Below the pieces are notes generated by a model. That model saw only the letters and a program-made list of their open reading frames with translations, ran no database searches and was not told the DNA's origin. Shown in pieces: positions 2,714 through 63,124 of a stretch of 64,000 nucleotides of DNA. This DNA comes from Candidatus Saccharimonadales bacterium (GTDB taxonomy: Bacteria; Patescibacteriota; Saccharimonadia; Saccharimonadales; UBA10212): the NCBI GenBank assembly GCA_040900055.1, contig JBBDZU010000007.1, forward strand, positions 25,831 through 89,830, written 5' to 3'. How positions within the stretch are numbered: position 1 is the stretch's first letter; each line of letters begins with the position of its first letter. The position numbers and the translations under genes are program-made.

Positions 2714-3241
2714 ATGGTTGATTTTAATAAAGTTTTAGAGCCAGGCGACTACCTAAAAGGTGAAGTCAACACTGTAGTAGAGATACCCAAAGGCTCTGTG
2801 AATAAAATCGAGTGGGACCGCAACCGGGCAGCTTTCAAGCTAGACCGCGTCGAGCCAGATATTTTTGCCAAGCCGGTCAACTATGGGTTTATTCCTCAGA
2901 CGCTTGATGAAGACGGTGACGAACTAGATACTTTAATAGTAACCGATGAACCACTTCAAACTGGCGCTTGGATGAAAGCTAAAATTATTGGGGTGCTGAA
3001 CTTTGAAGATGATGGTGAGGCTGATCACAAAGTGGTGGTAGTGCCGGCAGATAATCGAAATACCGGCGATTCCGTTAAATCGCTGAGTGATCTAGGCGAA
3101 CGCTGGAAACAGAAAATTGAGCATCACTTTTCTCATTACAAGGATCTTTATAAGCCCGGTAGCACCAAGGTGCTAGGTTGGGGCGACATCGAGGAAGCCA
3201 AAAAAATTATCGCCGACTCTATAGCCCGAGCCAAAAGTTAA
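2714..3241 (+). CDS. ppa: inorganic pyrophosphatase (family I)
   Basis: 175 aa with EIPKGS..K.E, YGFIPQTLDEDGDELD and HKVV motifs typical of family I PPase. Confidence 0.93.
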   Translation: MVDFNKVLEPGDYLKGEVNTVVEIPKGSVNKIEWDRNRAAFKLDRVEPDIFAKPVNYGFIPQTLDEDGDELDTLIVTDEPLQTGAWMKAKIIGVLNFEDDGEADHKVVVVPADNRNTGDSVKSLSDLGERWKQKIEHHFSHYKDLYKPGSTKVLGWGDIEEAKKIIADSIARAKS

Positions 3242-3310
3242 CGTTGGTTGCGCGCACACTATCTAACTCGTACAATTAAAAGATATTAAACTAATGCTTA
3301 AATAGGTGGG

Positions 3311-4483
3311 ATGAAAACCAAAATTGCTATAAATGGGTTCGGACGAATCGGCCGGAGCGCTTTTAAAATTGCTTTTGAGCGTCCTGACCTGGAAGTTGTG
3401 GCAATTAATGATTTAACCGATACCAAAACCTTGGCCTATCTTTTGAAACACGACAGCAACTACGGTACTTACCAGCGCAAGGTTGAGTTTAACGAAACAA
3501 ACTTAATAATTGACGGCACAACCGTGCGAGTTTTAGCTGAGCCCGAACCGGCCAAATTGCCCTGGCGTAAACTTGGCGCACAAGTCGTGATTGAATCAAC
3601 CGGACGCTTTACTGACCCAGGTATTGCCAAAGTCCATATCGAGGCTGGCGCTGCAAAGGTCATCATTAGTGCTCCAGCCAAAGGTGAGGCCGCCGAGACA
3701 ATTGTGCTTGGCGTCAATGACGATGAGCTAAACCAGGCCGGAGATATTATTAGCAATGCTTCTTGTACCACTAACTGCATCACACCAGTCATGGCTATTT
3801 TAGAAAGTCACTTTGGCATTGAAAAAGCCATGATGACAACGGTACATAGCTATACCAACAGCCAAAGGCTGCTGGATGCGCCGGCTAAGGATTTGCGTGA
3901 AGCCCGGAGCGCTGCTACCAATATAGTACCAACCACGACGGGAGCTTCTACGGCAGCCAGCAGAGCCATGCCAAAGCTAGCAGGCATTTTTGGGGGTTTG
4001 AGTATTCGAGTGCCCACGCCGGTAGTATCTTTAAGCGATTTCGTGGTTGTGTGTAAACGAGCGGTAACGGTTGAAGAAGTTAACGAAGTTTTTTTAAAAG
4101 CCGCCCAGGAACCTTTTTATCAAGGCATTTTAGCTACCACTGACGAACCGTTAGTCAGTAGCGATTTTATTGGCAACAGTCATTCCGCTATCATCGATCT
4201 AAGCCTCACTGCAGTAGTCGGCGACACCCTGCTCAAAGTAGTTGCTTGGTACGATAACGAATGGGGCTATGCTAATCGACTGGTAGAATTAACAGCTGAT
4301 ACGGCTCGGTTACTTTCGAAAGAAGAAAAAACAGGCTCAGAAACAATAAAGTCCAAAGACACTGACTCCAAACCGTTGTTGGAAGCTCCGGAGCGTGAGC
4401 CTGAAGCCCCAAAGAATACTCTTCCCAAGGCCTCGCCTAATCCTTCTCCGGGGGGTTCTATAGATGGCATCCGACATTTTTAA
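3311..4483 (+). CDS. gap: glyceraldehyde-3-phosphate dehydrogenase with ~55-aa low-complexity C-terminal tail
   Basis: NGFGRIGR NAD motif, SNASCTTNC catalytic Cys motif and WYDNEWGY near the normal C-terminus. A P/E/K/S-rich extension follows. Confidence 0.95.
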   Translation: MKTKIAINGFGRIGRSAFKIAFERPDLEVVAINDLTDTKTLAYLLKHDSNYGTYQRKVEFNETNLIIDGTTVRVLAEPEPAKLPWRKLGAQVVIESTGRFTDPGIAKVHIEAGAAKVIISAPAKGEAAETIVLGVNDDELNQAGDIISNASCTTNCITPVMAILESHFGIEKAMMTTVHSYTNSQRLLDAPAKDLREARSAATNIVPTTTGASTAASRAMPKLAGIFGGLSIRVPTPVVSLSDFVVVCKRAVTVEEVNEVFLKAAQEPFYQGILATTDEPLVSSDFIGNSHSAIIDLSLTAVVGDTLLKVVAWYDNEWGYANRLVELTADTARLLSKEEKTGSETIKSKDTDSKPLLEAPEREPEAPKNTLPKASPNPSPGGSIDGIRHF

Positions 4484-54367: not shown

Positions 54368-57300
54368 ATGCGCCAATATAGCCACGGAACTAACATTGCC
54401 GATTTTGACGCCGTAAGGCTGGCCATTGCCAACCCAGAGAATATTCTTGACTGGAGCTACGGCGAAGTAACTAAGCCCGAGACCATTAACTACCGCACCC
54501 AAAAACCGGAGCGTGACGGCTTGTTTGATGAACGAATCTTTGGGCCTGTTAAAGACATCAACCCTCACGACGCTAAATATAAAGGTATTCGCAGCCGGGA
54601 CATGGCGGTCGATAAGCGAGGCGAGATTGTCACCCGGTCCATAGTGCGCCGGGAGCGAATGGGTCATATTTCCTTGGCTTCGCCTGTAGCTCATGTTTGG
54701 TTTTTACGCGGCACACCAAGTGCCACGGGACTAATACTTGGCTTGACCGTCAAGAACTTAGAGCGGATAGCTTATTTTGCCAGCTACATAATTAAAAGCG
54801 TAGACGTAGCCGCCCGCGACAAGATAAAAGCCGATAAGGAAGCCGAGTTTACGGCAGCCGAGGCGGCCATTAATAAACGTTACGAAAAAGCTAGCTTAAA
54901 AAAAGACGCCGATGTTCGTGATTTGGCCGAATTAAGGACTAAAGAGCTAGAAGAACTCACCGCTGAGGCCGAAGCTTCCAAGGCTCAAGTCGATGGGTTA
55001 GATCGGCTAAGGCTAATCTCCGAGACCGATTACCGCAACTTACCCGATAATTTGCGTTCGCTAATTAAGGTTGGAATGGGCGGCTCAGCCCTAAAAGAGC
55101 TGCTCGAAGAAGTCGATTTAAAAAAACTGATAAAAGATCTGTCAGCCGAAGCCGAAGAGACCAAAGGCCAGCGCAAGAAAAAGATTATGAAGCGGCTTAG
55201 ACTGATTGAGAGTATGGAGAGGGCCGGTATAAAGCCAAGCAGCCTTTGCATTAGTGTTATACCGGTAATACCGCCGGATCTTCGGCCGATGGTGCAGTTA
55301 ACCGGTGGGCGTTTTGCTACTTCTGACTTAAACGATCTTTACCGGCGGGTAATTAACCGTAACAACCGACTAAAAAAATTAGTGGACCTTAACGCCCCCG
55401 AAGTTATTCGCCGAAACGAGCAGCGCATGCTCCAAGAAGCTGTCGATGCCTTAATAGACAATAACAGTGCCAGGTCTGGCCGAGCAGTAGCTGCCACTGG
55501 CCAGCGTCGGCGCCTGAAGTCCCTTTCTGACATGCTAAGGGGTAAACAAGGCCGTTTCCGCCAGAATTTATTGGGCAAGCGAGTCGACTATTCCGGACGC
55601 AGCGTAATTGTTTCTGGGCCGGAGCTAAAAATGTACCAATGCGGCCTACCAAAAACTATGGCCCTGGAGCTCTTTAAACCTTTTGTAATTGGCCGGCTAA
55701 TTGACCAGGAACTGGCCCACAATATTAGAAGTGCCACTCGGATGATAGAACTAAATGAAGCAGCTGTTTGGGACGCCCTAGACGAAGTTATAAAAGGCAA
55801 ATACGTACTACTTAACCGTGCCCCCAGCTTGCACCGTTTAAGCGTCCAGGCTTTCCAGCCGGTTTTAATCGAGGGCAAGGCTATTCAGCTTCATCCGCTA
55901 GTTTGTAAAGGTTTTAATGCCGACTTTGATGGCGACCAAATGGCGGTCCATCTGCCACTTGGTACTATTGCCCAGGCCGAAGCTAGAGAAATTATGGCCG
56001 CCAACAAAAACTTGCTTAAGCCAGCCGACGGCTCACCAATCCTGCACGTGGAACAAGACATTGTTTTAGGGTGTTACTACTTAACATATGAGCGACCAGG
56101 CAACGAAGCCGAGGAACCTAAAGCATTGGGCAGTATCGAGGAAGTTGTTTTGGCTCTTGACCGCCGAAAAATTGACCTGCAAAGCCGGGTAAAAGTAATG
56201 TTCCGCGGTGCTGAGCGAGACACTACAGCCGGCCGGCTGCTATTTAACGAGATATTCCCAGATGACTTCGCTTTCCAAAACGAGGCTATGACGAGCAAGA
56301 AGTTAGACTCCGTTATGTCGGCTACCTACCAAAAATACGGGCAGGAAAAGACAGCCGCTATAGCCGACGACCTAAAAGACTTGGGCTTTGGTTACGCTAC
56401 TTATTCTGGTCTATCCATAGGCATGGATGACTTTTCCGATCTTGTTAGCTTGCCTAAAATCGTCGATGACGGCGATAAACGTGCAACAGAAATCTCTAAA
56501 CAGTTTGGTGAAGGCTTTATTACCGACGAGGAACGCTATCGGCTTACCATCGAAACCTGGACAGACGTGGATTCTTTAGTTGAAAAATCTTTGGCCGAGC
56601 AATTTGCCACAGAAGATAACACTATGTCGATTGCGGTGGCTTCTGGCGCCCGGGGCAACTTAAGCCAGATGAAGGATAGTGTTGGCATGATTGGTATTCG
56701 GGCCGACGCCACTGGCCGAGCCATGGAGTTACCAATTAGAAATAACTATAAGTATGGCTTAACGCCGCTAGAATACTTTACGGCTACTCGTGGCACTAGA
56801 AAGTCATTGATTGATATTGCTCTTCGAACAGCCGATTCGGGCTACCTAACCCGCCGCCTGGTAGATGTAGCCCAAGATGTCTTTACCATTGCGGCCGAGG
56901 CTGATGACCCTGGCTTTCCTCTTTATAGGTCCGACTCGGAAACTATCGGCATTGACTTTGGCTCCCGCTTAAAAGGCCGTTATAGTGCCGAGACTATTAA
57001 AAAGCATGTCAAAGCCGGCGAGCTAATTACAGCCGAAATCGCTCAAGCTATTGCCGCTGTCCATACAATTTCCGCCGTTCGCATAATGAGTCCGTTATCT
57101 TGCAGCAGTGCCCGCGGCGTTAGCCAAAGATCTTATGGCATCGATATGGCTACCGGCAACCTTGTAGCCAATGATTATCCTATTGGAGTTATTGCTGCCC
57201 AGTCGATTGGTGAGCCAGGTACCCAGCTGTCGTTAGACTCTAAGCACCGAGCCGGGGCAGTTACCGCTGGCGACGATGTAACCCAAGGTTTAACACGCGT

Positions 57301-58234
57301 AGAAGAACTGTTAGAAGTTAGAACACCCAAGGGACAGGCTTACCTAAGCGACATTAAAGGTGTAGTAAATGCCTGGGAAGAAGACGACCAGTACATCGTT
57401 CAAGCTACTGCCAAAGAGCAAAAAGCTATAAAACTCCCCCTAGTTAGCCGCCAGCCCAAAGTAAATGATGGCGACGAGATAGCCGCCGGTGACGTAGTGG
57501 CCGCCAACTCCGATGGTACCGAGAAGTTGACCTCACCTATGGTAGGCAAGGTCAGCATCAACGACACCTCCATAACTATTACGCCAACCGCCAAAACCGT
57601 CGTACGCTATGAGATACCTGGCTTTAGGCAACTTTTAGTCAAGGATGGTGACGAGGTAGAAGCCGGCCAGCGGCTAACTAATGGTTCTATAAACCTGCAT
57701 GAGTTAATGCGACTTTCCGGAGTAGAAGAGGCGCAGCGCTACATCATGAATGAAATCCTCTATATTTTCGCCAGCCAGGGCCAAAACGTGGCCGACAAAC
57801 ACCTTGAAGTGGTTATCCGCCAAATGTTTTCAAGAGTCCAGATTGAAGATGCCGGTGACAGCCAGTTCATTACAGGTGACATAGTTAGCAAACAGGCCGT
57901 TATCGAGGTTAATGAATCGCTTAAAGCTAACCAAAATCCGGTTAAATATAGCCAGTTGCTACTTGGCATTACCAAAGCATCTTTAAGCACCGATTCTTTC
58001 CTAAGTGCCGCCTCTTTCCAAGACACCACCCGCGTCCTGATTGCCGCTGCCACCTCCGGAAAAGTAGATAATCTTTACGGTTTGAAGGAAAACGTTATTT
58101 TAGGTCGGCGGATTCCAGTGGGCACAGGCGCTTTGAAGGCCGAAGAATTGGCTGAGCTGGAAGGCCCAGAAGACCTAGCTAGATTAGATAGTCAAAGCGC
58201 CGAACGCCGTGACAACGTTGATTTTAAAGAGTAA
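54368..58234 (+). CDS. rpoC: DNA-directed RNA polymerase subunit beta'
   Basis: NADFDGDQMAVH catalytic motif. AAGGAGG Shine-Dalgarno upstream. 1288 aa. Confidence 0.97.
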   Translation: MRQYSHGTNIADFDAVRLAIANPENILDWSYGEVTKPETINYRTQKPERDGLFDERIFGPVKDINPHDAKYKGIRSRDMAVDKRGEIVTRSIVRRERMGHISLASPVAHVWFLRGTPSATGLILGLTVKNLERIAYFASYIIKSVDVAARDKIKADKEAEFTAAEAAINKRYEKASLKKDADVRDLAELRTKELEELTAEAEASKAQVDGLDRLRLISETDYRNLPDNLRSLIKVGMGGSALKELLEEVDLKKLIKDLSAEAEETKGQRKKKIMKRLRLIESMERAGIKPSSLCISVIPVIPPDLRPMVQLTGGRFATSDLNDLYRRVINRNNRLKKLVDLNAPEVIRRNEQRMLQEAVDALIDNNSARSGRAVAATGQRRRLKSLSDMLRGKQGRFRQNLLGKRVDYSGRSVIVSGPELKMYQCGLPKTMALELFKPFVIGRLIDQELAHNIRSATRMIELNEAAVWDALDEVIKGKYVLLNRAPSLHRLSVQAFQPVLIEGKAIQLHPLVCKGFNADFDGDQMAVHLPLGTIAQAEAREIMAANKNLLKPADGSPILHVEQDIVLGCYYLTYERPGNEAEEPKALGSIEEVVLALDRRKIDLQSRVKVMFRGAERDTTAGRLLFNEIFPDDFAFQNEAMTSKKLDSVMSATYQKYGQEKTAAIADDLKDLGFGYATYSGLSIGMDDFSDLVSLPKIVDDGDKRATEISKQFGEGFITDEERYRLTIETWTDVDSLVEKSLAEQFATEDNTMSIAVASGARGNLSQMKDSVGMIGIRADATGRAMELPIRNNYKYGLTPLEYFTATRGTRKSLIDIALRTADSGYLTRRLVDVAQDVFTIAAEADDPGFPLYRSDSETIGIDFGSRLKGRYSAETIKKHVKAGELITAEIAQAIAAVHTISAVRIMSPLSCSSARGVSQRSYGIDMATGNLVANDYPIGVIAAQSIGEPGTQLSLDSKHRAGAVTAGDDVTQGLTRVEELLEVRTPKGQAYLSDIKGVVNAWEEDDQYIVQATAKEQKAIKLPLVSRQPKVNDGDEIAAGDVVAANSDGTEKLTSPMVGKVSINDTSITITPTAKTVVRYEIPGFRQLLVKDGDEVEAGQRLTNGSINLHELMRLSGVEEAQRYIMNEILYIFASQGQNVADKHLEVVIRQMFSRVQIEDAGDSQFITGDIVSKQAVIEVNESLKANQNPVKYSQLLLGITKASLSTDSFLSAASFQDTTRVLIAAATSGKVDNLYGLKENVILGRRIPVGTGALKAEELAELEGPEDLARLDSQSAERRDNVDFKE

Positions 58235-58253: not shown

Positions 58254-58664
58254 ATGCCCACAGTTAGCCAATTGGTTAGAAAACCGCGCAAGAAAGTAAC
58301 TGGCAAGACCAAGTCGCCGGCCTTGCTGCGCATGACCAACAATTTAAAGACCAGAAACTATGAAAAACCCTCGCCTTTTAAGCGAGGCGTTTGTGTTAGG
58401 GTCACCACTAAAACACCCAAAAAACCAAACTCAGCTTTGCGCAAGGTTGCCCGTGTACGCTTAACTAACGGCCAGGAAGTTTGGGCTTACATTGGTGGAG
58501 AGGGACATAATCTGCAGGAACACGCCGTAGTTTTAGTACGTGGTGGTCGGGTGAAAGACTTGCCGGGTGTTAGATATCATATTGTCCGCGGCAGTCTGGA
58601 TTTGCAGGGCGTACAAAACCGCAGACAGGGCCGTTCAAAATACGGCGCCAAGAAAGCTAAATAA
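58254..58664 (+). CDS. rpsL: 30S ribosomal protein S12
   Basis: PTVSQLVRK...[16 protein letters not shown]...[15 protein letters not shown]. Confidence 0.97.
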
Positions 58665-58666
58665 GC

Positions 58667-59146
58667 ATGCCACGTAAAGTCACTAAATCGCTAGTTCGGA
58701 CGGTAGCCCCAGATCGTTTATATAGCAGTACGCACATAGCTAAGCTAATCAACCGTGTAATGCTACATGGTAAAAAACAACTGGCTGAAAAACAGGTTTA
58801 TGGGGGTATGCAAAAGGCTGCTGATAAGCTAAAGGTCCAAAACCCACTAGAAGTTTTTGAACAAGCCATGAAAAACATCAGCCCTCATATGGAAACTCGG
58901 TCCAGACGGGTAGGTGGAGCCAACTACCAAATTCCATTCGAGGTTCGTGGCCAGCGCCAACAGCATTTAACAACCATGTGGTTTGTGGAAGCGGCAAGAG
59001 CTCGATCGGGTATGGGTATGGAAGATCGAATCTTTGCAGAATTAGTTGATGCCTATAACAATGCCGGCTCGGCAGTAAAGAAAAAAGAAGACACCCACCG
59101 TATGGCTGAAGCCAACCGCGCTTTTGCCCACTTTGGCAGGAGCTAA
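58667..59146 (+). CDS. rpsG: 30S ribosomal protein S7
   Basis: KLINRVMLHGKK...RSRRVGGANYQIP...ANRAFAHF. Confidence 0.96.
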   Translation: MPRKVTKSLVRTVAPDRLYSSTHIAKLINRVMLHGKKQLAEKQVYGGMQKAADKLKVQNPLEVFEQAMKNISPHMETRSRRVGGANYQIPFEVRGQRQQHLTTMWFVEAARARSGMGMEDRIFAELVDAYNNAGSAVKKKEDTHRMAEANRAFAHFGRS

Positions 59147-59147
59147 G

Positions 59148-59447
59148 ATGCATCAAAGAGTAGACCGTGAAGTTATTTATTTCGAAGAATTGGAGACGCG
59201 ACAAGAAACTGGCTTCATCGTCGCCGCTCCCGAGCAATGTCTAGCTATCGACTGCGAATTTTTAAGTCCAAAAACTATAGCCGGTGACAAATCTTTACCG
59301 ATTGATCAAACAGCAGAAGACCTAGGTCTACGTGAAGGTGGTCGGCAGATAGTGATGAAAGAAATAAGTGTTCGAGGACTCCAGGCCGCCAATGGGCTCT
59401 GCCCGTATATTAAGCATAAGCCTAACTGCTGGCGAAAAGTTAAATAA
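59148..59447 (+). CDS. hypothetical 99-aa four-Cys protein between rpsG and fusA
   Basis: The ATG lies 1 nt after the rpsG TAA, with AGGAG inside the rpsG 3' end. Its TAA lies 1 nt before the fusA ATG. Cys pattern CLAIDC ... [10 protein letters not shown]. No family recognised. Confidence 0.5.
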
Positions 59448-59448
59448 G

Positions 59449-61536
59449 ATGGCCGACAAAAAATACCCTTTAGAAAAAATGCGCAATATTGGAATAATTG
59501 CCCATATTGACGCAGGTAAAACTACTGCAACTGAAGGTATCTTGTATCGAACCGGTCTAAAACATAAAATCGGCGCAGTCCATGAAGGCGAAACCACAAC
59601 CGACTGGATGGCCCAGGAAAAAGAACGCGGCATTACCATAACAGCCGCCGCCGTAACTTGTTTTTGGAAAGATCACAAAATCAACATAATTGACACGCCC
59701 GGCCACATTGATTTCACGGTAGAGGTGGAGCGTTCACTTAGGGTCCTCGACGGGGCCGTGGTTGTTTTTGATGGAAAAATGGGAGTAGAGTCACAATCCG
59801 AAACTGTTTGGCGCCAAGCCGACAGATATAATGTCCCACGTCTTTGTTTTATCAACAAAATAAATCAAACTGGCGGAGATTTTTATAAAAGTCTAGACAG
59901 CATTCATCATCGCTTGAGCCGCCGGGCCCTACCGATTCATTTGCCAATTGGTTTTGAGCAAGCAACTTCCGGCGTTATTGACCTAATTAGTATGAAGAGC
60001 TACACCTACAAAGATTTTACCGACAAAAATCTAACCGAAGGCGAAATCCCAGAAGACATGCGAGAAAAGGCCCAGCGGTATCGCAGTTTGCTAATCGAAG
60101 CGGCAGTTGAGGCCGACGACCATGCCCTAGAAAAGTATCTAGAAGAGGGAGAGGATAGCTTAACCGAAGCTGAAATCAACCAAGCTGTCCGAAAAGCCGT
60201 ACTTACTGGCCATTTTTTTGCAGTTAGTGGCGGTGATGGCCGCGGAGTAATAGTCGAAAAACTGCTAGATGCGGTAGTAGATTTTCTACCCAGCCCGCTA
60301 GATCGCGGCAGTAGCTGGGGTGTCAATCCAAAAAATGGCGAAGAAGTTGAACGTAAGCCGGACGCTGGCGCCCCATTTGCCGCTTTAGCTTTTAAAATCG
60401 CCACTGATCCATTTGTCGGTAAGCTGGCCTTCATAAGATGCTATTCCGGAGTAGTGAGAGCCGGTAGCTATATTCAAAATAGCTCGACTGGAGAAAAAGA
60501 GCGGGTGGGGCGGATTGTTCGCATGCATGCTGACAAAAGAGAAGATATCTTGTCAGTCGAAGCCGGCGACATTGCCGCTATTGTGGGTTTAAAAAATACT
60601 ACCACCGGCAACACCCTGTCTGACGCCGCAAACGCGGTAGTACTAGAGAGCATTACGTTTCCGGAACCCCCAGTTTCTATAGCCATCGAGCCTAAGACCA
60701 AAGCCGACCAAGAGAAAATGAGCCTGGCGCTTTCTCGTCTAGCCGAAGAAGATCCTACCTTTAGAATTAAATCTGACCAAGAGACCGGGCAAACAATCAT
60801 TTCTGGCATGGGCGAACTGCACCTAGAAATTATTGTCGACAGAATGAAACGGGAGTTCAGTGTCGAGGCCAATGTTGGCCAGCCCCAAGTTGCTTACCGC
60901 GAAACGATTCGTAAAGACGGCGTTGAAGCCGAAGGCAAGTATATTCGCCAAAGCGGGGGGCGCGGCCAATACGGACACGTACTGCTTAGACTTTTCCAAA
61001 ACGAGCCAGGCAAAGGCTTTGACTTTATTAACTCTATTAAAGGCGCCTCAATTCCATCGGAATTTATTCCGGCAGTTAGAGCCGGCATCGAGGAGGCTAT
61101 GTCTAATGGTGTAATTGCGGGTTATCCGGTTGTTGATATTAAGGCAGAATTATATGACGGCTCTTATCACGATGTGGACAGCTCTGAAATGGCCTTTAAA
61201 ATTGCCGGCTCTATGGCCTTTCAAGACGGCTTTAAAAAATCGGCGCCAGTATTACTTGAGCCTATTATGAAAGTAGTAGTCGTCACACCAGAAAGCTTTA
61301 TGGGCGATGTAATTGGTGACCTTAACTCCAAGCGCGGGCGTATAGAATCAATGGAGGATTTGTCCGCCGGAATTAAAGAAGTGACTGCCTATGCGCCACT
61401 TGGCGAGTTGTTTGGCTACACAACTAACCTTAGGAGCATGACCCAAGGGCGGGCCAGTTCTTCCGTGGAGCTAGACCATTACGCCGACGTGCCCCCCAAC
61501 ATTACCGAAGCTATCGTTGCTAAATCTACAAAATAA
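59449..61536 (+). CDS. fusA: elongation factor G
   Basis: Homology starts at [34 protein letters not shown] and NKID-type motifs. The listed 59368 start is an upstream extension. Confidence 0.97.
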
Positions 61537-61591: not shown

Positions 61592-63124
61592 ATGATGATT
61601 AATGTCAAACACCTGCCTATGCCGCCGGTGCTGCCTTTGCCTAAAGTCCGTCTTACGCCCGCCCAAGCCCTCTATACGCTGACTTCCAAGAACGGCCTTG
61701 GCGTTTACGCCAGCTCGGACCGCCTTTTTAAGGGGGCAGTTTTTGGGCGCGACTCGCTGGAAGTCGCCGAAGATTTAATGCACATAAAACCAAAGCTAGT
61801 CGAAAAAATTTTGCTAACGATGGCGTCATTGCAAGGCGAAGCCGATGATTATCTAAATGAAGAAGAGCCCGGCAAAATCATCCATGAATACCGTAAAACG
61901 GTAGTCGACGGCAAACCGTTAGACAAAGTTAGCCAGGATATTTTTAACAGCCTTGCTCGGCAGTGGGGCGGCAGTGATACAGTTTTAGCCTACTATGGCT
62001 CAGTAGATTCTACGCCACACTTTATAAGAGCTTTAGCCACTTATTGCCAAGCCTACGGCCTGGAAATCCTGACTCGACAGGTCAAACTGCGCAGCGGCCA
62101 AAAACAATCGGTGCTTGAGGCTCTTGATAACGCCATCAACTGGTTAGCCAAGCACGCTAAAAAATCTAAAAGTGGCCTAATAGAATACCAACGTCGTAAT
62201 CCCCACGGCATTGAAAATCAAGTTTGGAAAGATTCCCGAGAATTTTATGTCCATAAAGACGGTCACTTGGCCAGTCATAGCCGCCCAATCTCATCTATAG
62301 AGGTCCAGTCCCTAACCTATGATGCCCTTATTTTAGCTGCAGAAATTTTGCCGTCACGAAAAGCCCAGCTAACCGAGCTGGCTGACCAATTGCAAAAGCG
62401 AGTCATTGAACTGCTTTGGCTACCGAACAGAGACTATTTTGCTCTAGGTACAGACTTTGAGGCTAAGAACAAACTCCGGGTAATTAAAACTATTACCGCC
62501 AACCCAGCCGAGATACTAGATAGCTTGTTTCTCGACAATCTGCCGCTAAAAGACAAACAGCGCTATATTACCGGCATCGTCCAGAACATTATGGGCACTG
62601 ACTTTTTAACCGACGCCGGTATCCGTAGCCGCGCCCTGTCGGAAGCCGGCGTTATTAAATTTTGGGACTACCATGGCAGTTACGTTAGCTGGCCCAAAGA
62701 AACTTACGACATAGCCAAAGGCTTAAGGCGCCAAGGCTTTCCGGCCCTAGCGCGTGAATTAGAAAATCGCTTGCTTAATGTAATCAAAGCTACCCGGACA
62801 TATCCGGAGTTTATCTACGTTGACTTTCGCGGGCGAGTTCTGGGAGCGCCAACTTCGGCCAAAACTCACGGCGAACTAGTATTAGTGGACAGCAAGCACC
62901 AGCCGGAGAAAATTCAGGCTTGGACAATTTCGGCTGTTTTAGCCATTAATAGCTTTCGCCGTCGACGGTCTGTAGCCAGGGTCCATCAAAAACTTTGGCA
63001 AATTAAGTTAGAGAAGGAAGTTTTGCGCCATATTCCCCATGTGCCAAAGTTGCGTTTCGCTCGCGAACTGCAGGCCCGTTATCCAGCCTACCCCTACGAG
63101 CTGGACTTACAGGACCGCATTTAA
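61592..63124 (+). CDS. amylo-alpha-1,6-glucosidase / glycogen-debranching-enzyme-like (GDE_C) protein
   Basis: FGRDSLEVAED and ENQVWKDS motifs typical of the (alpha/alpha)6 GDE_C family. 510 aa. Confidence 0.75.
   Translation: MMINVKHLPMPPVLPLPKVRLTPAQALYTLTSKNGLGVYASSDRLFKGAVFGRDSLEVAEDLMHIKPKLVEKILLTMASLQGEADDYLNEEEPGKIIHEYRKTVVDGKPLDKVSQDIFNSLARQWGGSDTVLAYYGSVDSTPHFIRALATYCQAYGLEILTRQVKLRSGQKQSVLEALDNAINWLAKHAKKSKSGLIEYQRRNPHGIENQVWKDSREFYVHKDGHLASHSRPISSIEVQSLTYDALILAAEILPSRKAQLTELADQLQKRVIELLWLPNRDYFALGTDFEAKNKLRVIKTITANPAEILDSLFLDNLPLKDKQRYITGIVQNIMGTDFLTDAGIRSRALSEAGVIKFWDYHGSYVSWPKETYDIAKGLRRQGFPALARELENRLLNVIKATRTYPEFIYVDFRGRVLGAPTSAKTHGELVLVDSKHQPEKIQAWTISAVLAINSFRRRRSVARVHQKLWQIKLEKEVLRHIPHVPKLRFARELQARYPAYPYELDLQDRI

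Follow-up and report, generated by a model that had tools for sequence, protein, structure and literature searches.

Bacteria keep the genes for ribosomal proteins S12 and S7 and for elongation factor G in one of their most conserved operons, the str operon (rpsL-rpsG-fusA). The Saccharimonadales have genomes of roughly 1 Mb with little spare DNA, and a clade of these small-genome bacteria keeps an extra gene inside this operon. The locus analysed here lies in a stretch of 64,000 nucleotides (the window) and raises the question of what is encoded by the 99-codon open reading frame between rpsG and fusA, ORF99, why it is kept at this position, and whether its product acts on translation. It is fairly probable that ORF99 is a translated, clade-restricted small-protein gene, the local and highly diverged form of a long-standing occupant of the rpsG-fusA slot in one Saccharimonadales clade. 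Should its product act on translation, a poorly understood phylum would gain a new lineage-specific factor. Otherwise the locus would still illustrate that coupling can hold the ends of an ORF fixed even though the sequence between them changes more than ten times faster than the neighbouring genes, and that nothing of a protein need last except a four-ligand metal site.

The open reading frame between rpsG and fusA

An earlier note on this DNA described a 300-nt ORF that fills the rpsG-fusA gap exactly, one nucleotide from each neighbour. The junction coordinates agree with this description. The stop codon of rpsG (TAA, 59144-59146) is followed by a single G (59147) and then by the ATG of ORF99 from 59148, and the stop codon of ORF99 (TAA, 59445-59447) is followed by a single G (59448) and the ATG of fusA from 59449. 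The AGGAG translation signal described within the 3' end of rpsG was also found (Table 1). The product likewise matches the one described, with cysteines at positions 31, 36, 85 and 94, which form C-x4-C and C-x8-C pairs, and the residues WRKVK at the C-terminus. NCBI holds an identical entry, hypothetical protein WD877_02315 of a Candidatus Saccharimonadales MAG. The classical str operon has tufA after fusA. In the window fusA is followed by an ORF of 510 aa that is not tufA and has no Pfam match at E up to 1e-5.

Table 1. Features of the rpsG-fusA region in the window and of the two tandem slot ORFs on metagenome contig L082
Feature	Sequence	Coordinates	Strand	Remark
rpoC	window	54368-58234	+	upstream of rpsL
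rpsL	window	58254-58664	+	S12 by Pfam
rpsG (ribosomal protein S7, 159 aa)	window	58667-59146	+	Pfam Ribosomal_S7, E 2e-52
AGGAG Shine-Dalgarno (SD) motif	window	59138-59142	+	inside the rpsG coding sequence, 5 nt before the ORF99 ATG
ORF99 (99-aa Cys4 protein, 99 codons)	window	59148-59447	+	between rpsG and fusA
N-terminal Cys pair of ORF99	window	59238-59255	+	alignment with P0002, Cys positions
C-terminal Cys pair of ORF99	window	59400-59429	+	alignment with P0002
TAA-G-ATG stop-restart junction, ORF99/fusA	window	59445-59451	+	sequence, SD scan
fusA (elongation factor G, 695 aa)	window	59449-61536	+	Pfam GTP_EFTU, EFG_III, EFG_IV, EFG_C
510-aa ORF 3' of fusA	window	61592-63124	+	no Pfam match
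L001-type cassette (L082A)	L082	10-318		first of tandem
Window-type P0002	L082	383-673		second of tandem

ORF99 is a genuine coding gene. When the 302-nt gap is shuffled by dinucleotides, just 0.5% of the shuffles contain an open frame as long. Cysteine makes up 4.0% of the product, ten-fold its share in the 27 long ORFs of the window (0.38%), and at the rate of those long ORFs the probability of at least four cysteines in 99 residues is 6e-4. A codon-position Markov model trained on the genes of the window scores the ORF99 frame at +6.4 bits and the other five frames at -56 to -96. The shuffle, cysteine-enrichment and codon-model results thus exceed what chance would give. Set against segments of real genes, the codon-model score reaches just the 3rd percentile, and ORF99 has a GC3 of 0.37 compared with 0.48 for window genes (0.42 for rpsG and 0.45 for fusA).

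When 1.84 billion representative proteins were searched exhaustively with phmmer, one true homologue of ORF99 emerged, P0002 (96 aa, E 2.8e-7); P0003-P0007 were rejected as repeat-protein false positives. A profile of ORF99 and P0002 found nothing beyond the pair among 5.8 billion proteins, and a word-index search with ORF99 returned only ORF99 itself. The P0002 gene lies directly after an rpsG 3' end and overlaps the start of fusA. The earlier note had named loss of the frame in relatives as grounds for abandoning the gene; the frame is kept, in the same slot, in its sole detectable homologue. The two proteins are identical at 35 of 93 aligned residues (about 34-38% identity), all four cysteines of ORF99 are kept, and the motifs AP-x-x-C...C-x-FL and AANG-x-C-x5-PNCWR are common to both. 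The N-terminal pair is C31-x4-C36 in ORF99 and C-x2-C in P0002. The C-terminal pair, C85-x8-C94, lies within AANG-x-C-x5-PNCWR, where many identical residues have differing codons. Indeed, 20 of the 35 identical residues are encoded by different codons, third codon positions are 34% identical compared with 53% for first and second positions, and pN is 0.46 against a saturated pS of 0.78. This codon pattern indicates that it is the protein that is conserved, not the RNA.

A non-coding element filling the gap instead of a gene is so improbable that it can be set aside. RNA leaders or attenuators between rpsG and fusA have been described in streptococci and Pelagibacter (PMC2965389), and they provide a precedent for control of fusA expression from the same intergenic position. 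The gap in the window differs in being an ORF that carries no RNA structure signal. It has no Rfam match at E up to 1, its fold energy equals that of shuffles (z-score 0.06), and it contains neither a promoter nor a terminator. An S7-binding leader or attenuator RNA was rejected on the same results, and conservation at the level of RNA structure only, which the earlier note had raised against its own proposal, is excluded. The conservation between ORF99 and P0002 is at the amino acid level; their nucleotide identity is 47%, with third positions at the low value given above.

The statement of the earlier note that the product belongs to no recognised family is borne out across Pfam, NCBIfam, PDB sequences, PADLOC and PHROGs. 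ORF99 matched 0 families in Pfam-A and NCBIfam at E up to 10, gave only a chance match to the sequences of PDB chains (E 3.8), and had no match in PADLOC or PHROGs. The structure prediction of ORF99 alone that the note had called for did not succeed, as AlphaFold2 gave no confident fold, with a pLDDT of only 33 from the single sequence and 44 from the two-sequence alignment. An HNH or other homing endonuclease was rejected, given the lack of a Pfam match and the fact that P0002 does not share H89 of ORF99.

A clade-wide slot and the divergence of its occupants

S7 served as the probe to fetch 80 genome loci and 80 metagenome loci. The related set comprises 54 distinct Saccharimonadales loci whose S7 is at least 66% identical to that of the window. 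A slot ORF was taken as a + strand ORF that starts within about 13 nt of the rpsG stop and ends at or near the start of fusA. The rpsG-fusA gap is at least 140 nt long in 43 of the 54 related loci, and 40 of these 43 contain a + strand ORF of at least 40 codons that starts within 13 nt of the rpsG stop. Among gaps of 140-520 nt, a frame open over at least 80% of the gap is present on the + strand in 40 of 41 loci and on the - strand in 6 of 41. The gap is about 3-90 nt in distant Saccharibacteria, including oral TM7, and in most loci of other phyla, which upholds, outside the clade, the earlier view that a short rpsG-fusA spacer is the norm. ORF99 has the slot-ORF layout, with gaps of 1 nt and 1 nt. 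Rather than an isolated wedge, it is the local form of a clade-wide, very fast-evolving slot occupant. A literature search on an rpsG-fusA insert in Saccharibacteria found no description of the slot or of a family. What the search did find on this position concerns RNA leaders in other phyla only. ORF99 is a clade-specific form of a familiar kind of protein, small, with four cysteines and encoded among translation genes, whose pattern of evolution is unusual and informative.

Slot occupants are 41-168 aa long. Searches with phmmer and blastp link them into small groups only (the window and P0002; L001 and L082A; L010 and L014; L017, L103, L037 and L011), and hhalign of 22 cassette groups gave no significant link between subfamilies, with a best probability of 8%. 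Of 45 slot ORFs, 42 are without a Pfam match, and the matches obtained were to 23S_rRNA_IVP (L018), to LssY_C (L156) and, marginally, to UPF0261_C (E 0.0025). PADLOC returned nothing for the 45 slot ORFs, and the sole PHROGs match was the IVS/Avd-like protein of L018. That the Cys4 occupants share an ancestor, and likewise the Cys-free ones, is inferred from position and architecture only.

Several loci have unusual slot contents. The slot of L018 (3521-3886) holds a 23S-rRNA-intervening-sequence/bAvd-like four-helix protein (Pfam E 5.6e-35), that of L156 (383-1207) holds an LssY_C membrane protein (E 1.6e-66), and that of L127 (3105-3599) holds a 164-aa ORF that is YajQ-like by eye only. In L021 (3481-3787), which belongs to the clade, every + frame of the 307-nt gap is interrupted by stops, and the gap may contain a decayed occupant. 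L002 and L024/L114 have two ORFs in the slot. The 992-nt gap of L086 contains, within 2983-3852, a Cys-free ORF of 168 aa followed by a Cys4 ORF of 118 aa (C-x2-C...C-x7-C), both on the + strand. GC3 of the slot ORF is below that of the flanking rpsG and fusA in 36 of 37 loci, with a mean difference of -0.14.

Species-level pairs of slot ORFs are saturated in dS, and for this reason closer relatives were found for one group, subfamily H. Every additional member also occupies the rpsG-fusA slot. For L103 and L165, the cassette has a dS of 0.21, a dN of 0.060 and a dN/dS of 0.28, and S7 has a dS of 0.18, a dN of 0.003 and a dN/dS of 0.015. The corresponding values for L103 and L166 are 0.94, 0.195 and 0.21 for the cassette and 1.61, 0.025 and 0.015 for S7; those for L165 and L166 are 1.12, 0.189 and 0.17 for the cassette and 1.61, 0.022 and 0.014 for S7. 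The slot ORFs of subfamily H are under purifying selection, with dN/dS of 0.17-0.28, and their dN is approximately 8-20 times that of S7. The earlier note had asked for dN/dS, and these values answer for a related Cys subfamily. The window type's own dN/dS is not estimable because it has one homologue only and dS is saturated, as the pS against P0002 shows.

The cassettes of subfamily H appear to have been co-inherited with their flanks, since cassette dS is close to flank dS. Between typical species pairs, S7 dN is 0.09-0.2. At that species-level divergence, the measured cassette rate predicts a complete loss of detectable similarity. Vertical divergence of a single ancient gene can therefore explain most of the apparent hypervariability of the slot. 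The status of ORFan, held here by two sequences among 15 billion proteins, can thus come from ordinary vertical divergence at a dN/dS of about 0.25. Such a vertical origin of ORFans bears on how orphan genes in CPR genomes are read.

The cysteines and comparison with known systems

The number of cysteines per slot occupant is bimodal. Among 47 occupants, 15 have no cysteine, 7 have one, none has two, one has three, 17 have four and 7 have five; the scarcity of two or three cysteines has a P of 5e-12 against the Poisson expectation. The Cys-rich class has an N-terminal C-x2-7-C, then 31-73 residues, and then C-x4-18-C. Knuckles of the form C-P-G-C-P or C-x-N-C-P occur in several occupants. At the first ligand position of subfamily H, C-P-G-C-P of L011 aligns with H-P-x-C-P of L017 and L103, and a swap of Cys and His at a ligand position is typical of zinc sites. 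Had the cysteines formed two independent disulfides, occupants with two cysteines should occur as intermediates. The all-or-none counts thus argue for a single four-ligand site rather than two independent disulfides.

It seems likely from these features that the ORF99 protein binds metal. The four cysteines would form one tetrahedral metal site, most likely for Zn, that clasps the N- and C-terminal parts of a small domain. The spacings of x4 and x8 in ORF99 are non-canonical, and C-x8-C is not a classical zinc knuckle. Alternatively, the cysteines may ligate an Fe-S cluster or form disulfides. The proposal of the earlier note that the product is a small metal-binding factor is accordingly strengthened in part: four cysteines kept in P0002 and all-or-none counts speak for it, and the binding of metal is itself inferred only.

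Several known systems resemble the slot ORFs in part. Makarova et al. are said to have described in 2001 Zn-ribbon ribosomal proteins that occur in C+ and C- forms (bL31, bL33, bL36, bS14 and bS18). Like the slot ORFs, these are small, are encoded with the translation machinery, and have four cysteines in two pairs that are lost all together, which gives the same 0-or-4 pattern. Unlike them, the slot ORFs have no sequence or profile match, are not basic, evolve more than ten times faster than S7, and have a second pair of the form C-x4-18-C instead of CxxC. A ribosomal protein of the C+ type was rejected for ORF99 on its net charge of -1, a cassette dN 8-20 times that of S7 and the lack of a family match. 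The CPxCG-type zinc-finger micro-proteins of archaea and bacteria are orphans of fewer than 120 aa with two Cys pairs. The likeness lies in small size and orphan status and, for some slot occupants, in the C-P-G-C-P or C-x-N-C-P knuckles. ORF99 differs in having C-x4-C and C-x8-C and no family, and CPxCG proteins lack the fixed position in the str operon.

FusB and FusC are EF-G-binding proteins of about 213 aa with two domains, one of them a four-Cys zinc domain, and are encoded on plasmids or islands. ORF99 is similar in being a four-Cys protein linked with EF-G, in its case by gene position. It differs in its length of 99 aa, in its location between rpsG and fusA, and in having no match in Pfam, NCBIfam or PDB sequences. 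A FusB-type protein was rejected on length (99 aa compared with about 210 aa) and on the lack of a similarity match. Finally, Bacillus carries ybxF, which encodes an L7Ae-like protein, between rpoC and rpsL as a lineage-specific extra gene of the rpoBC-str cluster. ybxF, like ORF99, is a small non-universal gene embedded and co-expressed in an otherwise invariant translation operon, but it has another position, a recognisable fold family and ordinary conservation.

Translational coupling, cassette turnover and the role of the protein

The SD scan found no SD-like core in the 18 nt before the fusA ATG of the window. Judging from the junctions, ORF99 probably passes ribosomes on to fusA. Ribosomes would either initiate at the AGGAG within rpsG or resume after finishing S7; having translated ORF99, they would stop 1 nt short of the fusA ATG and begin again at that codon. 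ORF99 would then be an obligatory link in the translational coupling of S7 to EF-G, its translation would be needed for EF-G synthesis at this locus, and its protein might be made in amounts comparable to S7 and EF-G. Such a coupling constraint is proposed as the reason that ORF boundaries are conserved while the sequence is not. An AGGA/GGAG core precedes fusA in loci whose slot ORF stops more than 40 nt before the fusA start, and in L021, with its long gap and a broken or absent ORF, fusA has an AGGA core. Restart coupling is not universal, since an SD-like core precedes fusA at several tight junctions.

One metagenome contig carries two different slot ORFs in tandem (L082; ENA ERZ27256600, contig k141_4149486, 743 nt). 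Its L001-type and window-type cassettes are separated by a mini-ORF of 19 codons, MKDKKYNLISSAFAHFARG, in which a 5' piece of fusA runs into the final eight codons of rpsG. This fusA piece is closest to the fusA of L001 (25 of 33 nt, compared with a median of 17), and every junction in the array is tightly packed. The mini-ORF looks like a scar of duplication or recombination. A rough neighbour-joining tree of the flanking genes places the window and L001 as sisters, which makes tandem duplication or gain followed by differential loss a plausible origin of the array. A blastn-short search of other spacers for flank remnants found them on L082 only, the boundaries of ORF99 in the window have no repeats, and a tblastn search against phage found no match.

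These observations bear on two readings in which the peptide matters little or is recently acquired. It is quite unlikely that the frame is kept solely for the travel of ribosomes from rpsG to fusA, for coupling or for protection from polarity or mRNA decay, with a functionless peptide as the product. This would fit a frame that is open on the + strand in nearly all gaps despite unrelated sequences, start and stop positions that are kept while the sequence is not, the lack of an SD-like core before the window's fusA, a low coding score, a GC3 that is low in ORF99 and below the flanks in nearly every cassette, and the failure of AlphaFold2 to give a confident fold. A functionless peptide would, however, be expected to show a dN/dS near 1, far above that of subfamily H. 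In addition, pN is well below pS both between the window and P0002 and between L001 and L082A, and the all-or-none cysteines and the AANG-x-C-x5-PNCWR motif with its differing codons indicate constraint on the protein. It is very unlikely that the slot is an insertion hot-spot for exchangeable or selfish cassettes and that ORF99 is an allele recently swapped in by recombination across its conserved rpsG and fusA flanks instead of being inherited vertically. The tandem of two types with its fusA-5'/rpsG-3' fusion remnant, the unrelated slot genes of L018 and L156, the position of subfamily H members on separate branches of the flank tree, and a cassette GC3 below flank GC3 would all be consistent with exchange. 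Yet the dS of the cassette matches that of the flank in the close pair (0.21 and 0.18), which points to co-inheritance, and the rate of divergence alone predicts the loss of similarity, so that replacement is not needed. The boundaries have no repeats, attC-like sites or integrase, phage homologues were not found, and the tandem array is a single metagenome contig of 743 nt. An integron-like gene cassette was rejected, as boundary repeats are absent from the window, flank remnants occur on L082 only, and no integrase is present in the ORF list of the window.

The remaining alternatives assign the protein a role in translation. It is unlikely, although less so than either of the foregoing, that the Cys4 protein has S7, the 30S subunit or EF-G as its binding partner and modulates translation or protects it, possibly while evolving fast in an arms race with translation-targeting toxins or antibiotics of hosts or competitors. 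The gene is retained in the str operon across a genome-reduced clade, the coupled junctions imply co-expression with S7 and EF-G, and FusB-type proteins offer a precedent, from general knowledge, for a Zn-finger that binds EF-G. Against this, there is no similarity to a ribosomal protein, to FusB or to a translation-factor family, and the occupants are mostly neutral to acidic (net charge -13 to +9, with ORF99 at -1), unlike rRNA-binding proteins. Neither this charge nor a dN so far above that of S7 would suit a protein that docks onto a conserved surface of the ribosome. About half of the occupants have no or one cysteine (15 and 7 of 47), about 11 of the 54 clade members are without a slot gene, and some slots hold unrelated genes. 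Because the slot is clade-wide and has Cys-poor and unrelated occupants, its position is weak evidence for binding to the ribosome or EF-G, and the earlier suggestion of a ribosome- or EF-G-associated factor, to which only position points, is not sustained given this rate and charge. A core ribosomal role is disfavoured by the charge, the fast evolution, the Cys-free and unrelated occupants and the clade members that lack the gene. It is also rather improbable that all slot ORFs form one ancient clade-specific Zn-binding family that acts on translation, as a modulator of EF-G or the 30S subunit or as a protector from translation-targeting toxins of hosts or competitors, is made in step with S7 and EF-G, and has its divergence driven by an arms race. 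If true, episymbiotic CPR bacteria would have translation accessory factors of a new, lineage-specific class.

An accessory, co-expressed Zn-binding protein is more likely than a core ribosomal or EF-G subunit. Retention of a slot gene across a genome-reduced clade suggests that co-expression with the translation machinery confers some benefit. The best reading of the sequence data is that ORF99 encodes an accessory metal-binding mini-protein and that its ORF may double as a translational link to fusA.

The end of rpsG itself also varies within the clade. The last two or three codons of S7 differ among the window (59124-59146) and homologous rpsG ends, which encode endings such as HFGRS, HFARY, HFARG and HFART, and for most slot occupants it is the last rpsG codons that form the SD-like core. 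Because the variable codons mostly spell such a core, the C-terminus of S7 seems to be shaped by the ribosome-binding site of the downstream ORF.
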